Sequence record: MW602648.1
Reading direction: 5' to 3' (one strand)
DNA: 57,011 bases
Origin: Escherichia phage vB_EcoM_fHy-Eco03
Part shown: one piece after another, positions 1 to 57,011 of the stretch
Layout of the letters: every line of letters starts with the position of its first letter
Numbering within the stretch: the stretch's first letter is position 1
The notes under the pieces: model-generated
The model's input: only the letters and a program-made list of their open reading frames with translations
Database searches by the model: none
Told to the model about the DNA's origin: nothing
Position numbers and translations under genes: made by a program

Positions 1-45
1 GGCGCAAAAAGAAAAAAAGCCGGATTGCTTTTGAAATTATAGACA

Positions 46-74
46 TTTACACAAGTCTTAAACTATGTTACAAT
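46..74 (+). promoter_or_regulatory. Sigma70-like promoter (TTTACA-N17-TGtTACAAT) in terminal repeat
   Basis: TTTACA at 46..51, 17-bp spacer, TACAAT at 69..74 preceded by TG at 66..67; about 40 bp upstream of the ATG at 114. Duplicate at 53358..53386. Confidence 0.5.
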
Positions 75-113
75 AGTTATTATTTACAATGTTAAGCACA
101 ATAGGAATTCATC

Positions 114-311
114 ATGAGCTATACTGACCAACAAATTGACACAGCAGCGGTTTTATTGGCACAAGAGGTAGATTTATTGCATTCTTTGATGAATGCTAGT
201 CATGATAGAGCTGAAACTATCAAGAATCAGATACGGGAAATTTGGTCTCAGCAGGTCAGCAACGGTGTATCTTTGGACTTTTTGGTGTGCCGCCTGAGAG
301 GTCAACTGTAA
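114..311 (+). CDS. Hypothetical protein (65 aa)
   Basis: ATG ORF with AGGAA 6 nt upstream; stop overlaps the next start (TAATG). Confidence 0.5.
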   Translation: MSYTDQQIDTAAVLLAQEVDLLHSLMNASHDRAETIKNQIREIWSQQVSNGVSLDFLVCRLRGQL

Positions 312-736
312 TGGTAAACATAAGAAGCAAGGGCCAGAACTTTGAGCGTAAAATGTCGAAAATGTTCAATGAATCGTTCGGGTTATCTACTGAGAGAAAT
401 CTCCAGCAATCTATAAACGGTGGAGATGATTTGATGGGAGTCCCGTTCTTCAGCGTTGAGCTCAAGAAGCACAACACCAAAGCTATCGGGACTTGGTGGA
501 AGCAATGTGCGGAATCAGCACGGCGTCAAAGCAAGATGCCAGTGCTAATCTATGAGATGCCACGGCAAAAGCCCACTGTCGTGATGAGAATTGAGGACGT
601 CAGTCAAGCTTTGGCTGAGGCACCACTGTTGCCAGCGGCTAGTAACAGGCTCTTTGTGGGCTTGGTGGAATTAACATGGGAACAATTTTGCCGGGTCTAC
701 AACTTTTACGTTGCGCCCGGCGTCGAGGTTGCTTAG
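311..736 (+). CDS. Putative PD-(D/E)xK-family nuclease (141 aa)
   Basis: ATG at 311 overlaps the upstream stop. Motif GGDDLMGVPFFSVELKK (D...ELK) resembles the PD-(D/E)xK nuclease signature. Track ORF 242..736 is the same frame with an upstream start. Confidence 0.4.
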   Translation: MVNIRSKGQNFERKMSKMFNESFGLSTERNLQQSINGGDDLMGVPFFSVELKKHNTKAIGTWWKQCAESARRQSKMPVLIYEMPRQKPTVVMRIEDVSQALAEAPLLPAASNRLFVGLVELTWEQFCRVYNFYVAPGVEVA

Positions 737-774
737 GTTGATGCTTGCATCAACACCAGTCAACTGTAGTTGAC
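737..774. terminator. Two adjacent hairpins between convergent genes
   Basis: GTTGATG-cttg-CATCAAC (737..754) and GTCAAC-tgta-GTTGAC (759..774), between the + gene ending at 736 and the - gene ending at 777; no clear U-run. Confidence 0.3.
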
Positions 775-776
775 AC

Positions 777-962
777 TTAGTCTTGTTTCAACTCATCGCA
801 GATAACGCGTTGATTTTGAGCTGGTACAAACCCGAGTTCGAGCAAAGTGTAAGGACTATCGGCGACGCATTGTTCAATGGTAGTCCATTCAGTTTTGGAT
901 TCAATAATTTTGTAACTACAATCATGAGTAGCCACACATGTTGCCAGGATTAAGCCAATCAC
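777..962 (-). CDS. Hypothetical protein (61 aa, GTG start)
   Basis: GTG start overlaps the upstream stop (GTGA); GAAGGAG Shine-Dalgarno upstream. Confidence 0.45.
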   Translation of the reverse strand: MIGLILATCVATHDCSYKIIESKTEWTTIEQCVADSPYTLLELGFVPAQNQRVICDELKQD

Positions 963-1138
963 AAGTAATCTCCTTCAACCAGAAACTCAAACAATTGGTT
1001 GTAAACGTTGCAACCCTTAGCGAAAGAGCTTTCAGCAGGTTTACCATCGCGGACGATCATCATATATTCACCGCCATGAATATCCACCCAGTATTGCATG
1101 CCACCCTTGACAGGGTTACGTTGTAAGAATTTAAACAT
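959..1138 (-). CDS. Hypothetical protein (59 aa), absent from the ORF track
   Basis: Hand-translated: MFKFLQRNPVKGG...VEGDYL. AAGGAG 7 nt upstream of the ATG; start overlaps the upstream stop (TAATG) and stop overlaps the downstream GTG. Confidence 0.5.
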   Translation of the reverse strand: MFKFLQRNPVKGGMQYWVDIHGGEYMMIVRDGKPAESSFAKGCNVYNQLFEFLVEGDYL

Positions 1139-1383
1139 TATTTGCTCCTTACTCCAAGTTTATTCAATAACCACACTGTCATGTCAACCCAGGTTAACGG
1201 TACAGTTTTCGGGGGTTGATAAGACCAGCACTTTCCAGCTCTTTCCGCAATTTCTTCGCGCCTTGCCGCTTGGCGTAATACTGCATCGTCAGAAGTGCCG
1301 GCAGAAAAAATATCGGCAATACCAGATAAATCGCCTCGATGAACACGTCCAGCAAGTTCATGCAGTTGCTCCTCAGAAAACAT
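1138..1383 (-). CDS. Hypothetical protein (81 aa)
   Basis: ATG start overlaps the stop of the upstream small ORF (ATGTTTTCTGA); part of the coupled leftward array. Confidence 0.5.
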   Translation of the reverse strand: MFSEEQLHELAGRVHRGDLSGIADIFSAGTSDDAVLRQAARREEIAERAGKCWSYQPPKTVPLTWVDMTVWLLNKLGVRSK

Positions 1384-1492
1384 AAGACAACACCATTAGA
1401 ATGATGATAAAGACAGCAACGGCTTTCGCCATGCCACGAGATTCATTATACACCGGATTTTCAGTGGTGTACTCAACAACATGCTTTTTCAT
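1373..1492 (-). CDS. Small hydrophobic protein (39 aa), absent from the ORF track
   Basis: Hand-translated: MKKHVVEYTTENPVYNESRGMAKAVAVFIIILMVLSYVF. GGAGG Shine-Dalgarno upstream; hydrophobic C-terminal half suggests a membrane segment. Confidence 0.45.
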   Translation of the reverse strand: MKKHVVEYTTENPVYNESRGMAKAVAVFIIILMVLSYVF

Positions 1493-1549
1493 ACAACCTC
1501 CAGTGTGAGAAATATCAATTGATGGCACCCGCAGATGCCATCTCAGATA

Positions 1550-2122
1550 TTACTCGCCTTCAGTCTCAGATTTTTCTTCAGTCTGAGGTGCTGCGGCTTC
1601 GTAGACCGTCTTACCATCAGTGATTTTACCGGATTTAACATCGTTACGGTAATAACTCATGTAAGACTGTACAACACGTTTTGATTTAACATCATCTTCA
1701 GCCATTTCACAGGCTTTCATGGCATCCGCAAGAGCGAGTTTTGAATCGTCTTTGTCTGCCAAGTTGTAATCTTTGAAGACCGCGTAACAAGTATCTTTGG
1801 TACTCGGTCCTGAAGATTTACGAGTACAACCAGTTGAACCGGAACGACTAGCTTTCTTCACTTCAACATGCTCAACCTCAAGACTTTCAAGTGCCTTATA
1901 CAAAGCAGGCACCAGAACATCCTTGCTGTCTTTGTGGGTGACAGATGCTTCATCATCAAGACTTTTAATCATCTTGACCAGTTGAGCATTTTGGAACTCT
2001 TTGAGAGCGCCTTTCTCAACAACGATGCAACTCATCATGCCTTCCATTGACAGACCATCTTTGATGCCTTCAACAGAAAAAGCGGAAGTTAAGTAAACAT
2101 ACTGAGTGATAGAATTTTCCAT
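1550..2122 (-). CDS. Hypothetical early protein (190 aa)
   Basis: Long ORF with AAGAGGA Shine-Dalgarno upstream; largest ORF in the terminal repeat. Confidence 0.6.
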   Translation of the reverse strand: MENSITQYVYLTSAFSVEGIKDGLSMEGMMSCIVVEKGALKEFQNAQLVKMIKSLDDEASVTHKDSKDVLVPALYKALESLEVEHVEVKKASRSGSTGCTRKSSGPSTKDTCYAVFKDYNLADKDDSKLALADAMKACEMAEDDVKSKRVVQSYMSYYRNDVKSGKITDGKTVYEAAAPQTEEKSETEGE

Positions 2123-2252
2123 GATTTTGTCCTCTTGTTTGTGGTTGACATCATTATAATGTCATGACTTCAGTTGTTTGTACATCTCAAATCACACATT
2201 TTTGTGCAATTTTTATCATGCGGTACGAATTATACCGCATTGTAAAAATTAC

Positions 2253-2453
2253 TCAAGAAATAATTACCTCAGTAACTACTACAGTGTTAGCAGTCACTAA
2301 TGTCAAAACTTTACCAGCTTTTGACCTCACAGCTTTCAACCGTAATTGTGACTGTGTGTAATTATTCCACTCTTCATCACTGAGCACGGTCCTGGTAACT
2401 TCAGGTCGTTCATCTTTGCCAAGCTTCACTACTGTAACTTTGATTAATGGCAT
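2253..2453 (-). CDS. Hypothetical protein (66 aa)
   Basis: ORF packed 4 nt after the upstream gene. Confidence 0.45.
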   Translation of the reverse strand: MPLIKVTVVKLGKDERPEVTRTVLSDEEWNNYTQSQLRLKAVRSKAGKVLTLVTANTVVVTEVIIS

Positions 2454-2456
2454 TGC

Positions 2457-2684
2457 TTAAACCTCAAATTTTGATTCGTCATATTCAGGGTCAGTCACAT
2501 CACGAGTGACACAATTTTGGAGTGCAGTCCAGTATTTTTGGACTTCAGCACCCTCCATGTATAGTGTCCAACCGTGATAGTAACCCTCGAAACTATTCCA
2601 GGTCCGTTCCCAAATCTTTCCGTCTTCGAGCTTATACTCAGTTGGTCTTGAGTCAAACTCACGGATAGTTGTGAATGTTACCAT
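2457..2684 (-). CDS. Hypothetical protein (75 aa)
   Basis: ORF in the coupled leftward array. Confidence 0.45.
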   Translation of the reverse strand: MVTFTTIREFDSRPTEYKLEDGKIWERTWNSFEGYYHGWTLYMEGAEVQKYWTALQNCVTRDVTDPEYDESKFEV

Positions 2685-2753
2685 GCGTTGTTACGCCTCT
2701 GTTGAATAATTTCAATCATGAACTATCACAACTTTGATAGTTCATTGTTGAAA

Positions 2754-2933
2754 CTATTGTAACTTTGTACTAATTTGAATTGTCAATCTAAACTCTTCAA
2801 GTAAGTTATCAATGTTGGATTTATCTTCCACAGCGGTAGAAATTTGATCACTTACAATTTGAGCATTTGACTCAAGAAGTTCAATCAAATGTGTCAATTC
2901 GTCTGCTGTCAATGTCAATTCTTTCATCATCAT
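2754..2933 (-). CDS. Hypothetical acidic protein (59 aa), absent from the ORF track
   Basis: Hand-translated: MMMKELTLTADELTHLIELLESNAQIV... Start overlaps the stop of the upstream ORF (ATGATGA). Confidence 0.4.
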   Translation of the reverse strand: MMMKELTLTADELTHLIELLESNAQIVSDQISTAVEDKSNIDNLLEEFRLTIQISTKLQ

Positions 2934-3100
2934 TCTCCTGAGTTAAATTGTGTGTCAATTTCAATAACTTTGGAACGTACATATTCCAGACAGTCATCAT
3001 AATCGTATGAAGTGTAACTCGGCATTGGAGAATCCAACCCTTCGTTAACATTCCATTCACCTTCATTAACATCAAACCAGATGATTAATTGAGTATGCAT
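2930..3100 (-). CDS. Hypothetical protein (56 aa), absent from the ORF track
   Basis: Hand-translated: MHTQLIIWFDVNEGEWNVNEGLDSPMPSYTSYDYDDCLEYVRSKVIEIDTQFNSGE. AGGAGT Shine-Dalgarno 8 nt upstream of the ATG. Confidence 0.45.
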   Translation of the reverse strand: MHTQLIIWFDVNEGEWNVNEGLDSPMPSYTSYDYDDCLEYVRSKVIEIDTQFNSGE

Positions 3101-3270
3101 TGTTATTACTCCTGTGTTAAGTTGTTTCAGGTGAGACTACTAAACTACTAATAGTCTCTGGATGAAATAACTTCACAGAGAAACAAAACATGTACCAAAT
3201 TGTTAAAGAGCAAAAGACACCATTGACCATCTACCAGATGTGTCTGTTGACTGGTTAAGTACTAACTACA

Positions 3271-3462
3271 CTAAGTAACTACATGCATCCTCCTGAACCG
3301 TTTCTGTGTCAAGTTGTTCAACACATTCAATAAATACATTATGTCAAAGTCCCTGTTGGTTGTACACAATAGAAGTGCAAGTTTGTGCAAGCTTTTAGAA
3401 ATGATAATCATCTGCGGTTGATAGTGATTCTCGTATGCAATTGATATAGTAACGCTCGTCAC
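3271..3462 (-). CDS. Hypothetical protein (GTG start, uncertain)
   Basis: Track ORF; its 5' end overlaps repeat element A, so the start is uncertain. Confidence 0.3.
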   Translation of the reverse strand: MTSVTISIAYENHYQPQMIIISKSLHKLALLLCTTNRDFDIMYLLNVLNNLTQKRFRRMHVVT

Positions 3463-3545
3463 TACTCAGTGTGAAACAGTCGACGGGGGTAAACGTCACA
3501 CACCGGTGCTATATTAGTTCCCCGGCGCAATTTTTATAAAAAATA
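3440..3545. repeat. Imperfect direct repeat element A (about 100 bp)
   Basis: TTGATATAGTAACGCTCGTCACTACTCAGTGTGAAACAGTCGACGGGGGTAAACGTCACACACCGGTGCTATATTAGTTCCCCGGCGCAATTTTTAT aligns with element B 173 bp downstream. Confidence 0.6.
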
Positions 3546-3612
3546 CAATTTCGTTTGTAATCGTAGACATACGGTATAGTTGCGGCCCGGTACCGTCACG
3601 GTGAGTTGTGAT

Positions 3613-3720
3613 TACGATTGTAATGATAACGCACGTTACTATTCACTCTGAAGGGGTGCCGGGGGGTAATTGTCACCTAGGGGTGTTAATTTAAGCCCCG
3701 GCAAATTTTTTATTTTTTTC
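3613..3720. repeat. Imperfect direct repeat element B, spanning the terminal-repeat boundary
   Basis: TTGTAATGATAACGCACGTTACTATTCACTCTGAAGGGGTGCCGGGGGGTAATTGTCACCTAGGGGTGTTAATTTAAGCCCCGGCAAATTTTTTAT; the repeat boundary (3699/3700) falls inside it at CCCC|GGC. Confidence 0.6.
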
Positions 3721-18137: not shown

Positions 18138-18166
18138 TTTACTTAACCAAAAGTGCCTGCTATAAT
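18138..18166 (+). promoter_or_regulatory. Candidate promoter with extended -10 (TTTACT-N17-TGcTATAAT), overlapping a hairpin
   Basis: TATAAT 18161..18166 lies in the loop of a perfect 8-bp hairpin GTGCCTGC / GCAGGCAC (18153..18177). Confidence 0.35.
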
Positions 18167-18198
18167 ACTGCAGGCACGCAACCATGTTGGAGATAATC

Positions 18199-31636: not shown

Positions 31637-31670
31637 GCCTGCTCAATTTTTAGAGCAGGCTTATTTATTT
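31637..31670 (+). terminator. Rho-independent terminator after the tail genes
   Basis: Stem GCCTGCTC (31637..31644) / GAGCAGGC (31653..31660), then TTATTTATTT. Confidence 0.7.
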
Positions 31671-31692
31671 ACGGTACTAGATGTGCTATAAT
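31664..31692 (+). promoter_or_regulatory. Candidate promoter with extended -10 (TTTATT-N17-TGcTATAAT) for the lysis cassette
   Basis: TATAAT 31687..31692 preceded by TG at 31684..31685; TTTATT at 31664..31669; GGAG Shine-Dalgarno and ATG at 31727 downstream. Confidence 0.4.
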
Positions 31693-31726
31693 CCAGTCTT
31701 GGGCAACACTAAACTGGAGCAACACG

Positions 31727-31972
31727 ATGTTGAACAACTTATCGGAAAAGTTCCCGTTGATTGGGCAGATTATCGCTTGGATAACTGCCACAGTCAGTAC
31801 ATTGTCCTTGAGCGATTACGGAACTCTGGTAGGTATTTTTTCTTCTTTAGTAATGTTAATAGTTGTAACTTATAACCAAACCAAACGAACCAAGCTGCTT
31901 GCAGAATCATTGCAGCGCAGGTCCGAAATTATAGGGAACATCCACAATGAGTCTCAAATCAACAGCGACTAA
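31727..31972 (+). CDS. Putative holin or pinholin
   Basis: 81 aa from the internal ATG with GGAG Shine-Dalgarno; two hydrophobic segments (IGQIIAWITATVSTL and LVGIFSSLVMLIVV); immediately upstream of the endolysin. Confidence 0.5.
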   Translation: MLNNLSEKFPLIGQIIAWITATVSTLSLSDYGTLVGIFSSLVMLIVVTYNQTKRTKLLAESLQRRSEIIGNIHNESQINSD

Positions 31973-32510
31973 AGCTGGTGGTATAACTTGTTCAGTTATG
32001 GGCATCATTGCTTTGGTGGTATCTTCGACTAGCACACACGTCAGAACAAACCAGGAAGGCTTGGAGATAATTGGTAACGCTGAAGGATGTATGCGCAATC
32101 CTTACGTGTGTCCTACCGGTTATCTTACCGTTGGCATCGGAAGTCGTATCTATGAGAATGAACCCGCGGTGCGTCGCCCTGGACTAACTGACCAAGAGAT
32201 TGCAGACCGATGGGTTAAGAATATCCAGGAAGCTGAGAAATGCGTCAATGACTGGTTTCATGGTAAGGATATGAATGATAACCAGTTCAGTGCCATGACC
32301 TCAATGGTGTTCAACCACGGTTGCACCAAGCTCCGCAAGAACAAGGATGGTTCACCAACTAAAATTTATACTGCAGCTCGTTACCAGAACTGGACTGAGA
32401 TGTGTAATCGCATTACTGACTGGGATATGGGCGGTAAGTATAGAGGCTTGACAATACGCAAGCAAAAGGAAAAAGCGCTATGTCTAAAACCAGTGCCATC
32501 ATCGCGTTAA
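31947..32510 (+). CDS. SAR endolysin (lysozyme-like)
   Basis: N-terminal hydrophobic signal-anchor-like segment GGITCSVMGIIALVVSS, then lysozyme-like core EGCMRNPYVCPTGYLTVGIGS. Confidence 0.7.
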   Translation: MSLKSTATKAGGITCSVMGIIALVVSSTSTHVRTNQEGLEIIGNAEGCMRNPYVCPTGYLTVGIGSRIYENEPAVRRPGLTDQEIADRWVKNIQEAEKCVNDWFHGKDMNDNQFSAMTSMVFNHGCTKLRKNKDGSPTKIYTAARYQNWTEMCNRITDWDMGGKYRGLTIRKQKEKALCLKPVPSSR

Positions 32511-32830
32511 TAATGGGGCTGACAATAGTCTGCCTCTCTTTGTGGGTTAAGAGTCTCAAAACTGATATTGTCAATCGTGACCATACAATTGAAGCGCAAG
32601 TTAAGACAATTGCGGAGAAAGATAAAGCCAACAAAGATTTATCCACTGCTAATACTGTTCTGAGTAATCAGGTTGCCGCTGAAAGGCAGGCATCTGCTGA
32701 TAGAGCAGCTAAAATCAAAGAGCTTGAAGACAAGCTCAAAGATAAAAAGGGGAAGTATGAAAATGCAACGAAGAATGACCAGTGTGCTAATACTAATGCC
32801 CCTGACGCTGTTCTTGACCTCATGCAGTAA
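32480..32830 (+). CDS. Inner-membrane spanin (Rz-like)
   Basis: N-terminal transmembrane segment IIALIMGLTIVCLSLW followed by a coiled-coil region; directly after the endolysin. Confidence 0.55.
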   Translation: MSKTSAIIALIMGLTIVCLSLWVKSLKTDIVNRDHTIEAQVKTIAEKDKANKDLSTANTVLSNQVAAERQASADRAAKIKELEDKLKDKKGKYENATKNDQCANTNAPDAVLDLMQ

Positions 32831-33029
32831 AAAGCCCGAGTATATCTATGTTGACAGGGTTGTCAAACAATATCCTCCACAGGCTTATTTAGTCAAGTGT
32901 GATAAACCCACAATAAAAGGGAAGACGTGGAAAGCGATTGGTGAGCTGGCTATAGAACGTGGTAATGCTTTAGACGATTGTGCTGATAAGGTTGACAGCA
33001 TAATCAAGTGGAGTGAAGGGGCCAATTAA
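32757..33029 (+). CDS. Outer-membrane lipoprotein spanin (Rz1-like)
   Basis: Signal peptide with lipobox LTLFLTSC; AGGGGA Shine-Dalgarno before the ATG at 32757; overlaps the 3' end of the i-spanin gene in another frame. Confidence 0.55.
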   Translation: MKMQRRMTSVLILMPLTLFLTSCSKKPEYIYVDRVVKQYPPQAYLVKCDKPTIKGKTWKAIGELAIERGNALDDCADKVDSIIKWSEGAN

Positions 33030-33044
33030 GGCCCCTTTATTTTA
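33018..33044 (+). terminator. Terminator at the end of the rightward late operon
   Basis: GGGGCC-aattaa-GGCCCC then TTTATTTTA; lies between the convergent late and replication operons. Confidence 0.7.
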
Positions 33045-33320: not shown

Positions 33321-33544
33321 TAGCGCTTTCCTTTCTTTTCGTTAAGCTGTGCGCATGAAGCACACAACACTGTGCCAGGTAACAGCTGGCGGCGTTTTTC
33401 TTCGATGTCGTCACCGCACTGATAACATTCCAGCGGGCTTACACCTGTATAACGAACACGATTAGATACAGCTGCGTCACGGGCAATTTGCTCAACGTCC
33501 GAAGCCATATCACTTACATCTGATGTGCGTGTAGATTCAATCAT
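33320..33544 (-). CDS. DksA/TraR-like C4 zinc-finger protein
   Basis: 74 aa with CYQC...(17 aa)...CASC, a four-Cys pattern typical of the TraR/DksA family. Confidence 0.5.
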   Translation of the reverse strand: MIESTRTSDVSDMASDVEQIARDAAVSNRVRYTGVSPLECYQCGDDIEEKRRQLLPGTVLCASCAQLNEKKGKR

Positions 33545-33688
33545 ATTTCTTAGCCAAGTAAGGAATTACAATTTTTACATAAATCATACCGAGAGCAAAC
33601 GCGGTAAATCCTTTGGCCCATACTGGCAGAATATTTTCAACTAAAAACATGCAGCAAACAAGAAATAAAACATCCAGGGTAAACTTTC

Positions 33689-33964
33689 TCATTTGCATTC
33701 TTCCTCGCAGTAAATAGTTTCAAGTTCATCGCACAGCCTTTGAGTCCAGGTGTCTTCTTCACCTCGTATCTCAAAACAAAGGGCTGCTATATCATAGCCG
33801 TCAATATTACTTTTGTAAAGCTTTTTTGCGACCTCTTCCGGTTCTTCGCTGAAAATCCGCATAAACCAGTCTAAAGGGCAGGTGCATTCTGAGGTGTCTA
33901 GAACCTCCTGAGCACGTAGCTTAAGCGTTTCATCTACTGGGTACTCTAAACCTATATTAGACAC
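33689..33964 (-). CDS. Hypothetical protein (91 aa)
   Basis: ORF. Confidence 0.4.
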   Translation of the reverse strand: MSNIGLEYPVDETLKLRAQEVLDTSECTCPLDWFMRIFSEEPEEVAKKLYKSNIDGYDIAALCFEIRGEEDTWTQRLCDELETIYCEEECK

Positions 33965-53203: not shown

Positions 53204-53357
53204 TATATAAAAGATAGAGAGTATTTAAAACAAGTACTTAGGCATCCTTATTCATGTAATCCGGTTATATGTATTATATAATTATCAGATTGGATAAGAA
53301 AAAGTTATTGCCGGCGCAAAAAGAAAAAAAGCCGGATTGCTTTTGAAATTATAGACA

Positions 53358-53386
53358 TTTACACAAGTCTTAAACTATGTTACAAT
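53358..53386 (+). promoter_or_regulatory. Copy of the terminal-repeat promoter (TTTACA-N17-TGtTACAAT)
   Basis: Duplicate of 46..74. Confidence 0.5.
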
Positions 53387-53425
53387 AGTTATTATTTACA
53401 ATGTTAAGCACAATAGGAATTCATC

Positions 53426-53623
53426 ATGAGCTATACTGACCAACAAATTGACACAGCAGCGGTTTTATTGGCACAAGAGGTAGATTTATTGCATTCTTTG
53501 ATGAATGCTAGTCATGATAGAGCTGAAACTATCAAGAATCAGATACGGGAAATTTGGTCTCAGCAGGTCAGCAACGGTGTATCTTTGGACTTTTTGGTGT
53601 GCCGCCTGAGAGGTCAACTGTAA
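53426..53623 (+). CDS. Hypothetical protein (duplicate of 114..311)
   Basis: Identical copy in the right terminal repeat. Confidence 0.5.
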   Translation: MSYTDQQIDTAAVLLAQEVDLLHSLMNASHDRAETIKNQIREIWSQQVSNGVSLDFLVCRLRGQL

Positions 53624-54048
53624 TGGTAAACATAAGAAGCAAGGGCCAGAACTTTGAGCGTAAAATGTCGAAAATGTTCAATGAATCGTTCGGGTTATCT
53701 ACTGAGAGAAATCTCCAGCAATCTATAAACGGTGGAGATGATTTGATGGGAGTCCCGTTCTTCAGCGTTGAGCTCAAGAAGCACAACACCAAAGCTATCG
53801 GGACTTGGTGGAAGCAATGTGCGGAATCAGCACGGCGTCAAAGCAAGATGCCAGTGCTAATCTATGAGATGCCACGGCAAAAGCCCACTGTCGTGATGAG
53901 AATTGAGGACGTCAGTCAAGCTTTGGCTGAGGCACCACTGTTGCCAGCGGCTAGTAACAGGCTCTTTGTGGGCTTGGTGGAATTAACATGGGAACAATTT
54001 TGCCGGGTCTACAACTTTTACGTTGCGCCCGGCGTCGAGGTTGCTTAG
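53623..54048 (+). CDS. Putative PD-(D/E)xK-family nuclease (duplicate of 311..736)
   Basis: Identical copy in the right terminal repeat. Confidence 0.4.
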   Translation: MVNIRSKGQNFERKMSKMFNESFGLSTERNLQQSINGGDDLMGVPFFSVELKKHNTKAIGTWWKQCAESARRQSKMPVLIYEMPRQKPTVVMRIEDVSQALAEAPLLPAASNRLFVGLVELTWEQFCRVYNFYVAPGVEVA

Positions 54049-54088
54049 GTTGATGCTTGCATCAACACCAGTCAACTGTAGTTGACAC

Positions 54089-54274
54089 TTAGTCTTGTTT
54101 CAACTCATCGCAGATAACGCGTTGATTTTGAGCTGGTACAAACCCGAGTTCGAGCAAAGTGTAAGGACTATCGGCGACGCATTGTTCAATGGTAGTCCAT
54201 TCAGTTTTGGATTCAATAATTTTGTAACTACAATCATGAGTAGCCACACATGTTGCCAGGATTAAGCCAATCAC
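54089..54274 (-). CDS. Hypothetical protein (duplicate of 777..962)
   Basis: Identical copy in the right terminal repeat. Confidence 0.45.
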   Translation of the reverse strand: MIGLILATCVATHDCSYKIIESKTEWTTIEQCVADSPYTLLELGFVPAQNQRVICDELKQD

Positions 54275-54450
54275 AAGTAATCTCCTTCAACCAGAAACTC
54301 AAACAATTGGTTGTAAACGTTGCAACCCTTAGCGAAAGAGCTTTCAGCAGGTTTACCATCGCGGACGATCATCATATATTCACCGCCATGAATATCCACC
54401 CAGTATTGCATGCCACCCTTGACAGGGTTACGTTGTAAGAATTTAAACAT
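54271..54450 (-). CDS. Hypothetical protein (duplicate of 959..1138)
   Basis: Identical copy in the right terminal repeat. Confidence 0.5.
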   Translation of the reverse strand: MFKFLQRNPVKGGMQYWVDIHGGEYMMIVRDGKPAESSFAKGCNVYNQLFEFLVEGDYL

Positions 54451-54695
54451 TATTTGCTCCTTACTCCAAGTTTATTCAATAACCACACTGTCATGTCAAC
54501 CCAGGTTAACGGTACAGTTTTCGGGGGTTGATAAGACCAGCACTTTCCAGCTCTTTCCGCAATTTCTTCGCGCCTTGCCGCTTGGCGTAATACTGCATCG
54601 TCAGAAGTGCCGGCAGAAAAAATATCGGCAATACCAGATAAATCGCCTCGATGAACACGTCCAGCAAGTTCATGCAGTTGCTCCTCAGAAAACAT
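54450..54695 (-). CDS. Hypothetical protein (duplicate of 1138..1383)
   Basis: Identical copy in the right terminal repeat. Confidence 0.5.
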   Translation of the reverse strand: MFSEEQLHELAGRVHRGDLSGIADIFSAGTSDDAVLRQAARREEIAERAGKCWSYQPPKTVPLTWVDMTVWLLNKLGVRSK

Positions 54696-54804
54696 AAGAC
54701 AACACCATTAGAATGATGATAAAGACAGCAACGGCTTTCGCCATGCCACGAGATTCATTATACACCGGATTTTCAGTGGTGTACTCAACAACATGCTTTT
54801 TCAT
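54685..54804 (-). CDS. Small hydrophobic protein (duplicate of 1373..1492)
   Basis: Identical copy in the right terminal repeat. Confidence 0.45.
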   Translation of the reverse strand: MKKHVVEYTTENPVYNESRGMAKAVAVFIIILMVLSYVF

Positions 54805-54861
54805 ACAACCTCCAGTGTGAGAAATATCAATTGATGGCACCCGCAGATGCCATCTCAGATA

Positions 54862-55434
54862 TTACTCGCCTTCAGTCTCAGATTTTTCTTCAGTCTGAGG
54901 TGCTGCGGCTTCGTAGACCGTCTTACCATCAGTGATTTTACCGGATTTAACATCGTTACGGTAATAACTCATGTAAGACTGTACAACACGTTTTGATTTA
55001 ACATCATCTTCAGCCATTTCACAGGCTTTCATGGCATCCGCAAGAGCGAGTTTTGAATCGTCTTTGTCTGCCAAGTTGTAATCTTTGAAGACCGCGTAAC
55101 AAGTATCTTTGGTACTCGGTCCTGAAGATTTACGAGTACAACCAGTTGAACCGGAACGACTAGCTTTCTTCACTTCAACATGCTCAACCTCAAGACTTTC
55201 AAGTGCCTTATACAAAGCAGGCACCAGAACATCCTTGCTGTCTTTGTGGGTGACAGATGCTTCATCATCAAGACTTTTAATCATCTTGACCAGTTGAGCA
55301 TTTTGGAACTCTTTGAGAGCGCCTTTCTCAACAACGATGCAACTCATCATGCCTTCCATTGACAGACCATCTTTGATGCCTTCAACAGAAAAAGCGGAAG
55401 TTAAGTAAACATACTGAGTGATAGAATTTTCCAT
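54862..55434 (-). CDS. Hypothetical early protein (duplicate of 1550..2122)
   Basis: Identical copy in the right terminal repeat. Confidence 0.6.
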   Translation of the reverse strand: MENSITQYVYLTSAFSVEGIKDGLSMEGMMSCIVVEKGALKEFQNAQLVKMIKSLDDEASVTHKDSKDVLVPALYKALESLEVEHVEVKKASRSGSTGCTRKSSGPSTKDTCYAVFKDYNLADKDDSKLALADAMKACEMAEDDVKSKRVVQSYMSYYRNDVKSGKITDGKTVYEAAAPQTEEKSETEGE

Positions 55435-55564
55435 GATTTTGTCCTCTTGTTTGTGGTTGACATCATTATAATGTCATGACTTCAGTTGTTTGTACATCTC
55501 AAATCACACATTTTTGTGCAATTTTTATCATGCGGTACGAATTATACCGCATTGTAAAAATTAC

Positions 55565-55765
55565 TCAAGAAATAATTACCTCAGTAACTACTACAGTGTT
55601 AGCAGTCACTAATGTCAAAACTTTACCAGCTTTTGACCTCACAGCTTTCAACCGTAATTGTGACTGTGTGTAATTATTCCACTCTTCATCACTGAGCACG
55701 GTCCTGGTAACTTCAGGTCGTTCATCTTTGCCAAGCTTCACTACTGTAACTTTGATTAATGGCAT
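55565..55765 (-). CDS. Hypothetical protein (duplicate of 2253..2453)
   Basis: Identical copy in the right terminal repeat. Confidence 0.45.
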   Translation of the reverse strand: MPLIKVTVVKLGKDERPEVTRTVLSDEEWNNYTQSQLRLKAVRSKAGKVLTLVTANTVVVTEVIIS

Positions 55766-55768
55766 TGC

Positions 55769-55996
55769 TTAAACCTCAAATTTTGATTCGTCATATTCAG
55801 GGTCAGTCACATCACGAGTGACACAATTTTGGAGTGCAGTCCAGTATTTTTGGACTTCAGCACCCTCCATGTATAGTGTCCAACCGTGATAGTAACCCTC
55901 GAAACTATTCCAGGTCCGTTCCCAAATCTTTCCGTCTTCGAGCTTATACTCAGTTGGTCTTGAGTCAAACTCACGGATAGTTGTGAATGTTACCAT
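55769..55996 (-). CDS. Hypothetical protein (duplicate of 2457..2684)
   Basis: Identical copy in the right terminal repeat. Confidence 0.45.
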   Translation of the reverse strand: MVTFTTIREFDSRPTEYKLEDGKIWERTWNSFEGYYHGWTLYMEGAEVQKYWTALQNCVTRDVTDPEYDESKFEV

Positions 55997-56065
55997 GCGT
56001 TGTTACGCCTCTGTTGAATAATTTCAATCATGAACTATCACAACTTTGATAGTTCATTGTTGAAA

Positions 56066-56245
56066 CTATTGTAACTTTGTACTAATTTGAATTGTCAATC
56101 TAAACTCTTCAAGTAAGTTATCAATGTTGGATTTATCTTCCACAGCGGTAGAAATTTGATCACTTACAATTTGAGCATTTGACTCAAGAAGTTCAATCAA
56201 ATGTGTCAATTCGTCTGCTGTCAATGTCAATTCTTTCATCATCAT
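56066..56245 (-). CDS. Hypothetical protein (duplicate of 2754..2933)
   Basis: Identical copy in the right terminal repeat. Confidence 0.4.
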   Translation of the reverse strand: MMMKELTLTADELTHLIELLESNAQIVSDQISTAVEDKSNIDNLLEEFRLTIQISTKLQ

Positions 56246-56412
56246 TCTCCTGAGTTAAATTGTGTGTCAATTTCAATAACTTTGGAACGTACATATTCCA
56301 GACAGTCATCATAATCGTATGAAGTGTAACTCGGCATTGGAGAATCCAACCCTTCGTTAACATTCCATTCACCTTCATTAACATCAAACCAGATGATTAA
56401 TTGAGTATGCAT
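56242..56412 (-). CDS. Hypothetical protein (duplicate of 2930..3100)
   Basis: Identical copy in the right terminal repeat. Confidence 0.45.
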   Translation of the reverse strand: MHTQLIIWFDVNEGEWNVNEGLDSPMPSYTSYDYDDCLEYVRSKVIEIDTQFNSGE

Positions 56413-56582
56413 TGTTATTACTCCTGTGTTAAGTTGTTTCAGGTGAGACTACTAAACTACTAATAGTCTCTGGATGAAATAACTTCACAGAGAAACAAAA
56501 CATGTACCAAATTGTTAAAGAGCAAAAGACACCATTGACCATCTACCAGATGTGTCTGTTGACTGGTTAAGTACTAACTACA

Positions 56583-56774
56583 CTAAGTAACTACATGCAT
56601 CCTCCTGAACCGTTTCTGTGTCAAGTTGTTCAACACATTCAATAAATACATTATGTCAAAGTCCCTGTTGGTTGTACACAATAGAAGTGCAAGTTTGTGC
56701 AAGCTTTTAGAAATGATAATCATCTGCGGTTGATAGTGATTCTCGTATGCAATTGATATAGTAACGCTCGTCAC
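56583..56774 (-). CDS. Hypothetical protein (duplicate of 3271..3462)
   Basis: Identical copy in the right terminal repeat. Confidence 0.3.
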   Translation of the reverse strand: MTSVTISIAYENHYQPQMIIISKSLHKLALLLCTTNRDFDIMYLLNVLNNLTQKRFRRMHVVT

Positions 56775-57011
56775 TACTCAGTGTGAAACAGTCGACGGGG
56801 GTAAACGTCACACACCGGTGCTATATTAGTTCCCCGGCGCAATTTTTATAAAAAATACAATTTCGTTTGTAATCGTAGACATACGGTATAGTTGCGGCCC
56901 GGTACCGTCACGGTGAGTTGTGATTACGATTGTAATGATAACGCACGTTACTATTCACTCTGAAGGGGTGCCGGGGGGTAATTGTCACCTAGGGGTGTTA
57001 ATTTAAGCCCC

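Follow-up and report, generated by a model that had tools for sequence, protein, structure and literature searches.

The lysis cassette of Escherichia phage vB_EcoM_fHy-Eco03 (accession number MW602648.1) was located at positions 31637-33043 on the plus strand of the window, i.e., the whole 57,011-base stretch of DNA under analysis. It displayed, in order, a terminator hairpin, an extended -10 promoter, four overlapping genes encoding a holin, an endolysin, and two spanins, and a closing terminator. The component features were as follows:

31637-31670, plus strand: intrinsic terminator 1, with hairpin GCCTGCTC-N8-GAGCAGGC at 31637-31660 and then TTATTTATTT (U-rich tail)
31664-31695, plus strand: putative sigma-70 promoter, with -35 TTTATT at 31664-31669 and extended -10 TGcTATAAT at 31684-31692
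31727-31972, plus strand: holin gene, 81 aa (phrog_1350, 6.8e-12)
31947-32510, plus strand: endolysin gene, 187 aa (PF00959, 1.9e-19; phrog_7, 1.2e-50)
31974-32036, plus strand: signal-arrest-release (SAR) segment of the endolysin, residues 10-30, AGGITCSVMGIIALVVSSTST, located after K4/K9 and containing Cys15
32082-32129, plus strand: catalytic and caging motif of the endolysin, E46-G-C48-x6-C55-x5-T61, equivalent to E42/C44/C51/T57 of P1 Lyz
32480-32830, plus strand: inner-membrane spanin (i-spanin) gene, 116 aa (PF10828 DUF2570, 3.7e-9; phrog_214 Rz-like spanin, 3.2e-12)
32757-33029, plus strand: outer-membrane spanin (o-spanin) gene, 90 aa (PF23793 LysC, 1.6e-20; phrog_456 Rz-like spanin, 2.4e-22)
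33018-33043, plus strand: intrinsic terminator 2, with GGGGCC-AATTAA-GGCCCC at 33018-33035 and then TTTATTTT

The successive genes overlapped by 26 nt (holin/endolysin), 31 nt (endolysin/i-spanin), and 74 nt (i-spanin/o-spanin). All four proteins matched lysis families of PHROG, and none of the four scored above cut-off in the NCBIfam search. The nearest relatives of the window were Salmonella phages vB_SEnST11_KE25/KE26 and vB_SE1_KM, which aligned to 65-75% of its first 25 kb at ~88% identity; across the cassette region the nucleotide identity was 95.7% for KE25/KE26, 90.6% for KM, and 83% for Erwinia phage SOI901, which placed the window in a KE25/KE26/KM/SOI901 sub-lineage, with BP63-like Rosemountvirus and Loughboroughvirus phages following SOI901 in closeness. 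Relative to KE25, KM, and SOI901, substitutions in all four frames fell mainly at the third codon position (counts at positions 1/2/3 versus SOI901: 13/7/33 in the holin, 11/7/69 in the endolysin, 13/8/35 in the i-spanin, and 4/2/23 in the o-spanin), and the four frames were therefore taken to be under protein-coding selection. The four proteins, together with their key residues, were kept in KE25, KM, SOI901, BP63, swi3, LPSEYT, and S1.

The cassette was read as the lysis module of a Rosemountvirus-like myophage that operates through a holin, a SAR endolysin, and a two-component spanin, and a probability of about 0.85 was given to this reading. The original prediction had proposed a four-gene lysis cassette at 31664-33044: the gene content was borne out by the open reading frames (ORFs), the Pfam and PHROG families, and the third-position bias, and the limits were broadly right, with the start at 31664 falling inside the promoter, where no gene begins, and the end refined to 33043.

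Endolysin and spanins

The endolysin contained a GH24/T4-lysozyme-type muramidase domain (PF00959, 1.9e-19). Its best match among solved structures was phage P1 Lyz (1XJT, E 1.4e-43 over query residues 7-181; 1XJU, E 1.8e-39), and a BLASTP comparison with Lyz from the P1 genome gave 46% identity over the full length. The SAR segment (53% Gly/Ala/Ser/Thr; mean Kyte-Doolittle 1.73) aligned to the SAR segment of P1 Lyz, with Cys15 as the counterpart of P1 Cys13; its Hessa sum was +2.5 versus -2.0 for the transmembrane domain (TMD) of the i-spanin, and it was therefore much less hydrophobic than the latter. The catalytic and caging motif read NAE46-G-C48-MRNPYV-C55-PTGYL-T61, and it included a catalytic triad with the spacing Glu-8aa-Cys-5aa-Thr (E46/C55/T61), in which Cys stood in place of Asp. 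In a family alignment of 122 sequences (the 120 top-scoring database homologs plus P1 Lyz and the protein from the window), E46, C48, C55, and T61 were invariant in 122 of the 122 sequences, and the full set of seven P1 Lyz cysteines, Cys15 among them, was kept in 121, the sole exception being an N-terminally truncated annotation.

Because the SAR Cys, the E-8-C-5-T triad, and the caging Cys were all kept, the enzyme was assigned to the P1 Lyz type of SAR endolysins (class I, disulfide-caged). In P1-class SAR endolysins, a disulfide cages the catalytic Cys, which is set free by the Cys of the SAR domain once that domain has left the membrane. This class was reportedly described by Xu et al. 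2005 and Kuty et al. 2010. The work of these authors on the SAR class is summarized in bioRxiv 10.64898/2026.09.09.750462. No statement assigning the enzyme to the P1 disulfide-caged class was found in the literature on this phage group, and the predicted assignment follows directly from the sequence. The original prediction of a SAR endolysin with an N-terminal signal-anchor-like segment was thus kept and sharpened to the P1 class (1XJT, 46% identity, and the cysteines), and the lysozyme fold on which it depended was found, with both PF00959 and the P1 Lyz structures matched.

As a separate observation, nucleotide similarity to BP63-like phages (80-82%) was confined to 32055-32547, which corresponded to the catalytic part of the endolysin gene, and the holin gene, the SAR segment, and the spanin genes were below megablast detection against these phages; conservation was therefore far stronger in the enzyme core than in the membrane-associated partners. 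LysSE24 of phage LPSE1 was rejected as a characterized Rosemountvirus endolysin: LPSE1 is a 41.8-kb siphovirus, and the enzyme has 162 aa.

By hydropathy prediction, the i-spanin was a type II inner-membrane protein with a TMD at residues 4-23 (N-in; Hessa sum -2.0), and it further contained a charged periplasmic domain that was helical by family. The o-spanin displayed the signal structure MKMQRRM basic n-region–hydrophobic core–lipobox L20-T21-S22-C23 (nt 32814-32825), with a mature length of 68 aa; the lipobox Cys23 was conserved in 7 phages, and Ser at +2 (no Asp) would be compatible with outer-membrane sorting. Periplasmic Cys101 of the i-spanin and Cys48 and Cys75 of the o-spanin were conserved across both clades and would be available for intermolecular disulfides; Cys18 in the i-spanin TMD was not. 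The o-spanin gene started inside the i-spanin gene in the +1 frame (74-nt overlap) and ran 199 nt past the i-spanin stop, and the sequence supported a predicted two-component pair of "overlapped" architecture, as in P2 LysB/LysC. This class was the commonest in the survey of Kongari et al. (228/528 systems; PMC6139136). An o-spanin with lipobox LTLFLTSC overlapping the 3' end of the i-spanin gene in another frame had been anticipated from the start, and Cys23, the +1 frame, and the PF23793/phrog_456 matches agreed with it. The lipobox of the window clade was the canonical L-T-S-C; that of the BP63-clade o-spanin (BP63, locus L003, 3149-3457; also loci L005/L006) was L-N-S-C, with an unusual Asn at -2.

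Holin and hole size

The holin gene had its ATG at 31727, with GGAG at 31716-31719 upstream of it. The protein contained two hydrophobic windows, TMD1 (~9-29) and TMD2 (~31-49), with the loop SLSDYG, which contained D30. TMD1 (42-47% Gly/Ala/Ser/Thr; Hessa sum +3.3 to +5.0) was less hydrophobic than the endolysin SAR segment (+2.5), and TMD2 (Hessa sum +1.05) displayed the small-residue face G32-x3-G36-x3-S40. A basic C-terminal tail (KRTK...RR) followed TMD2, and an N-in/C-in class II topology was therefore predicted by the positive-inside rule; according to a note in the BP63 record, TMHMM and Phobius see one TMD in the holin. The gene had a single start codon and thus encoded no dual-start antiholin.

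The PHROG matches (phrog_1350 holin, 6.8e-12; phrog_20 holin, 6.9e-6) showed the holin role of the 81-aa protein by family, and the holins of two relatives gave sub-threshold Pfam scores (S1 against PF04971, E 0.019; BP63 against PF16080, E 0.13). The family was very narrow: (i) a word-index search of a 5.8-billion-protein index returned 5 clusters; (ii) 63 phage records carried the family, nearly all of them Rosemountvirus or Loughboroughvirus; and (iii) an exhaustive profile search of 1.84 billion representatives with the holin gave only five matches at E <= 1e-3. Two of these five weak matches were true Pfam members, namely, P0008 in PF04971 (phage 21 S; 36.4 bits) and P0009 in PF16080 (HP1 holin; 50.6 bits). 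A 2401-aa repetitive protein (P0006) among the holin-search matches was taken as spurious. With a hidden Markov model (HMM) of the holin family, HP1 Hol scored 11.6 bits in register (TMD1, loop, and TMD2) and S21 scored 4 bits; the best outside match was the PhiR46_1 holin (33 bits), which lies beside an R21-type SAR endolysin. LydA and LydC of P1 were ruled out as relatives (HMM ~0 bits).

Two holins from the Pfam families just named, S21 68 and HP1 Hol, are pinholins by experiment (PMC7312051). Because of the weak, transitive family links to these HP1 and phage 21 pinholins and of the HP1-like gene layout, a pinholin was the more likely reading of the 81-aa protein, at odds slightly above even. 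The term "pinholin-like" in the original prediction was accordingly kept in part: it agreed with the predicted class II topology, the weak TMD1, the TMD2 small-residue face, the overlap with a SAR endolysin gene, and the remote HP1/21 links, and against it stood the lack of membership in PF04971 or PF16080.

The strongest competitor, a sizeable minority view, was that the protein is a canonical large-hole class II holin, which would depolarize the membrane, release the SAR endolysin, and also pass soluble proteins. SAR endolysins do work with either kind of holin, since N4 gp61 was complemented by both a pinholin and a large-hole holin (bioRxiv 10.1101/2025.11.12.688109) and both LydA and LydD are employed by P1 (PMC9025707); moreover, the window holin lies outside the Pfam families of phage 21 S and HP1, its hhalign comparison with the S21 family was not significant, and TMD count and hydropathy are uninformative on hole size. 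However, the only detectable outside relatives were members of two families with experimentally shown pinholins, TMD1 (+3.3 to +5.0) was even less hydrophobic than the SAR segment (+2.5), the G32-x3-G36-x3-S40 face resembled that of S21 TMD2, and no other candidate for the holin is present in the cassette, the endolysin of which does not require a large hole. Hole size would be decided only by complementation assays, and not from sequence, TMD count, or hydropathy.

With the pinholin still preferred, it was tentatively proposed, at a confidence not far below even, that the Rosemountvirus/Loughboroughvirus holin forms a separate, narrow pinholin family that bridges PF16080 and PF04971 through an S-L-S-D-W-G...G-I...S-L loop-TMD2 signature and that is paired with a class I disulfide-caged SAR endolysin, with no dual-start antiholin. 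If so, only the holin and the enzyme's redox lock would set the timing of lysis. The narrow family would also provide a handy extra test case for what makes a pinholin.

A Rosemountvirus-type holin was also carried by PP583539.1, "Listeria phage 220426122051" (53,072 bp; host Listeria monocytogenes). It was 54.8% identical to the window holin, which equaled the value of the BP63 group, and the Listeria host assignment looks doubtful.

Transcription signals

Terminator 1 folded at -20.6 kcal/mol (z = -6.5), none of 200 shuffles folded as well, and it was listed by the consensus scan. Its stem was preserved in KM by two compensatory substitutions (T>C and, in the pairing position, A>G), and the BP63 clade and Loughboroughvirus S1 had another hairpin plus T-run at the same location. 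Terminator 1 is the end of the upstream tail-fibre/late structural operon. Terminator 2 folded at -24.7 kcal/mol (z = -5.9) on the plus strand; on the minus strand the hairpin had no U-tract and a z of only -2.8. It was kept in 7 phages, the RefSeq record of BP63 annotates a terminator there, and its position is where the cassette meets the convergent replication genes of the minus strand. The consensus scan listed neither terminator 2 nor the cassette promoter: the former was missed, at a guess, as its stem was extended into the T-run, and the latter because its -35 is weak. Both were checked through folding and conservation instead. The bracketing of the cassette by a terminator/promoter pair and a closing terminator, as originally proposed, was upheld by the folding energies, the compensatory stem change, and the invariant -10.

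The promoter had a 17-nt spacer, counted to the TATAAT hexamer, and its extended -10 (TGcTATAAT) was located 23 bases downstream of the terminator 1 hairpin and 35 nt upstream of the holin ATG. The 13-mer GTGCTATAATCCA (31683-31695), which holds this extended -10, was invariant across all 8 related loci, spanning at least two genera, with strongly diverged flanks. All four TGNTATAAT sites in the window were intergenic and oriented toward the next gene; their number was not above chance, being reached by 23/100 shuffles. These data gave good but indirect evidence that the conserved 13-mer with its extended -10 is a functional host-type promoter.

Alternatively, the cassette would have no independent promoter, TGcTATAAT would be another element (an RNA or protein binding site), and the lysis genes would be expressed by late-operon read-through only. 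The weak -35 (3/6), the omission from the consensus scan, and the chance-level TGNTATAAT count are in line with this, as is the fact that a phage-modified RNA polymerase often drives late phage genes. It was nevertheless judged improbable: the invariant 13-mer holds a perfect extended -10, which is able to act without a -35, and it sits 35 nt 5' of the ATG, with a strong terminator immediately before it, in 8 phages that represent two or more genera; all four TGNTATAAT sites are intergenic and co-oriented with the downstream gene; and promoters before the cassette were also predicted by the S144 authors (PMC7432712).

A second strong promoter-like site (TTTACT, 17 nt, TGcTATAAT) was found at window positions 18138-18175, between the gene for a 987-aa protein and the next structural gene. 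A perfect hairpin, GTGCCTGC-tataatac-GCAGGCAC, carried its -10 in the loop, and the site could act as terminator and promoter at once or as a promoter under regulation.

Proposed lysis pathway, related systems and annotation

The pathway would run as follows. The extended -10 promoter of the cassette would drive its transcription, probably supplemented by a degree of read-through past terminator 1, and transcription would stop at 33018-33043. By homology to P1 Lyz, the endolysin would be exported by the Sec system via its SAR segment and tethered in the inner membrane, with its lysozyme domain in the periplasm; the tethered enzyme would be inactive because the catalytic Cys55 is held in a disulfide with Cys48. 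The 81-aa holin would build up in the inner membrane and trigger at a critical concentration, whereupon the membrane potential would collapse, likely through small pinholes rather than large holes. On depolarization, the SAR segment would exit the bilayer, the Cys15 thiol would attack the Cys48-Cys55 bond as expected from P1 Lyz, and Cys55 would be set free. The refolded endolysin (E46/C55/T61) would then degrade the peptidoglycan, and loss of the wall would free the complex of the i-spanin (inner membrane) and the o-spanin (outer-membrane lipoprotein) for membrane fusion and virion release.

The N-terminus of the endolysin might instead be an ordinary cleaved Sec signal peptide, giving a soluble, untethered enzyme controlled by the disulfide cage or membrane energization only, and the Ser/Thr-rich end of the segment (SSTSTH) does offer possible small residues at -1 and -3, but this is very improbable given that the segment aligns with the P1 Lyz SAR domain with the activating Cys kept, that the SAR Cys occurs in 121/122 homologs and would be pointless within a peptide cut off, that no AxA motif is found in the segment, and that the 53% Gly/Ala/Ser/Thr composition is SAR-typical. 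The SAR domain of P1 Lyz itself is known as uncleaved.

Several points weigh against the holin/SAR-endolysin/two-component-spanin reading. (i) No experimental work on the cassette was found in the literature on this phage group, and export, tethering, disulfide isomerization, and hole size are for this reason inferred by homology. (ii) The topologies of the cassette proteins derive from hydropathy sums and the positive-inside rule. (iii) The holin had no Pfam match (E <= 0.1, PF04971 and PF16080 included) and no NCBIfam membership; in hhalign, its family aligned in register with the phage 21 S family with no significance (E 0.04, probability 1.3%), both alignments being shallow (Neff ~1.5), and it had no similarity to P1 LydD (hhalign probability 0.7%, HMM ~0 bits). 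(iv) The -35 of the cassette promoter is poor, with 3/6 consensus matches; firing may require an activator or may not occur, and late read-through could suffice.

The comparison was extended to five known systems. P1 Lyz and the window endolysin shared, beyond their 46% identity, the SAR Cys (C15 here, C13 in P1), the triad (E46/C55/T61 versus E42/C51/T57), the caging Cys two residues past the Glu (C48 here, C44 in P1), and all seven cysteines; the P1 Lyz structures represent the active (1XJT) and inactive (1XJU) forms. They differed in a small loop near residues 131-140. The gene organizations were also different: in P1 the lysozyme gene comes first, with the pinholin gene lydD after it and lydA/lydB and the spanin genes in unlinked operons (PMC9025707), whereas the window had four genes in one compact cassette with the holin first, and this holin had no similarity to LydA, LydC, or LydD.

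Haemophilus phage HP1 shared with the window the gene order and overlap, in that the gene for a small two-TMD holin overlaps at its 3' end the gene for a SAR lysozyme of the P1 Lyz type, and an Rz-like spanin gene comes next, as well as the NxEGC...PYKCP...T motif in Lys and the in-register match of Hol to the window holin-family HMM (11.6 bits). For the holins of HP1 and of the window group alike, predictors were split between one and two TMDs (PMC7312051; BP63 annotation note). The overlap of the HP1 holin with a P1-type lysozyme and the proof that Hol is a pinholin come from the same study (PMC7312051). However, the holin similarity was far under the PF16080 threshold, HP1 Hol had another tail and an unusual topology reported on over-expression, and HP1 infects Pasteurellaceae as a temperate P2-like phage, whereas the window represents a ~53-kb virulent-type myophage of Enterobacteriaceae.

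Lambdoid phage 21 (S21 68/R21/Rz-Rz1), the paradigm of the pinholin/SAR endolysin pairing, likewise had a holin/SAR endolysin/spanin cassette. Its S21 was a class II holin in which TMD1 was weakly hydrophobic and TMD2 displayed a small-residue face, and it shared the loop-TMD2 pattern S-x-S-(D/Q)-(W/Y)-(G/A)-x-(L/I)-x-G-(I/V)-x-x-S-L. The sequence relation of S21 to the window holin was not significant (hhalign E 0.04; HMM 4 bits). R21 belonged to class II (E-D-T triad, no SAR Cys, refolding-only activation), in contrast to the class I endolysin predicted here, and phage 21 had a dual-start antiholin and embedded spanins, whereas the window had a single Met and overlapped spanins.

As for P2 LysB/LysC, the window o-spanin matched PF23793 LysC (1.6e-20), the i-spanin matched DUF2570 and weakly TIGR03495 LysB, and in both systems the start of the o-spanin gene lies, in the +1 frame, within the i-spanin gene, past which it extends (overlapped class, PMC6139136). 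The NCBIfam scores were far under the cut-offs (equivalog P2_Rz1, 16.8 bits versus 27; LysB, 14.3 versus 92.75), and the window spanins were therefore relatives of the P2 spanins and not orthologs.

Loughboroughvirus S144/S1 and Rosemountvirus BP63 harbored an orthologous four-gene cassette at the same place after the tail-fibre assembly genes, convergent with a DksA-like gene and DNA polymerase, with the same promoter 13-mer and the same terminators. They differed in their holins (52-56% identity only, with other C-terminal tails), and the BP63 clade differed further in its L-N-S-C lipobox. The S144 paper described the four-gene cassette in this sister genus, with a class II holin (two TMDs), an endolysin, an i-spanin, and a +1-frame o-spanin and with promoters predicted upstream (PMC7432712), and in the GenBank entry for Loughboroughvirus S1 the enzyme bears the label "SAR-endolysin". 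All components are thus of described classes and the four-gene cassette was already described in silico in sister phages, and the finding accordingly carries little weight for basic biology. Its practical value lies in annotation and phage engineering: anyone cloning the endolysin as an antibacterial would be dealing with a predicted P1-type enzyme that has a membrane-anchoring N-terminus and a catalytic cysteine expected to be disulfide-locked.

As for annotation, errors were found in several related records. KE25, KE26, and KM had no holin annotated and carried a wrong-frame "hypothetical protein" over the holin gene instead:

31681-31875, plus strand of the window (KE25, locus L001, 2782-2976; KM, locus L004, 1282-1476): wrong-frame 64-aa ORF that overlies the holin gene

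This 64-aa ORF was rejected as a gene, with stops in SOI901, BP63, and S1 and with substitutions that support the 81-aa holin frame. The endolysin annotations of BP63 (RefSeq; locus L003, 2441-2947) and swi3 (locus L005) started at a GTG inside the SAR segment, which removed the basic N-terminus and the SAR cysteine; the frame was open upstream (VSLKSAATKGGCSV...). The SPHG1 "lysin" (P0014) was truncated likewise at the SAR segment. Annotated spanin starts that lose the TMD or the signal sequence were found for the i-spanin in KE25 and for the o-spanin in KE25, KM, and BP63.

With respect to the genomic setting, window positions 1-3699 were identical to 53313-57011. Given this exact 3,699-base end repeat, the window was one complete 53,312-bp phage genome read past its own start, i.e., the genome plus a 3,699-bp exact repeat of its beginning; either the genome is circularly permuted or terminally redundant, or the repeat is an assembly wrap-around. 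The cassette was located at the end of the plus-strand structural block, directly 3' of the tail fibre and tail-fibre assembly genes (PF02413, phrog_136), and its convergent minus-strand neighbors encoded an N4 gp49-family protein, a DksA-like zinc-finger protein, and DNA polymerase. The Rfam scan and the tRNA scan of the whole window gave no match. At 33537-33698 on the minus strand, in the early/replication block ~0.5 kb from the lysis cassette, a 53-aa ORF encoded a very hydrophobic small protein with about two transmembrane segments; it had no PHROG match, was not in the BP63 layout, and was annotated as "hypothetical" in KE25 and KM.

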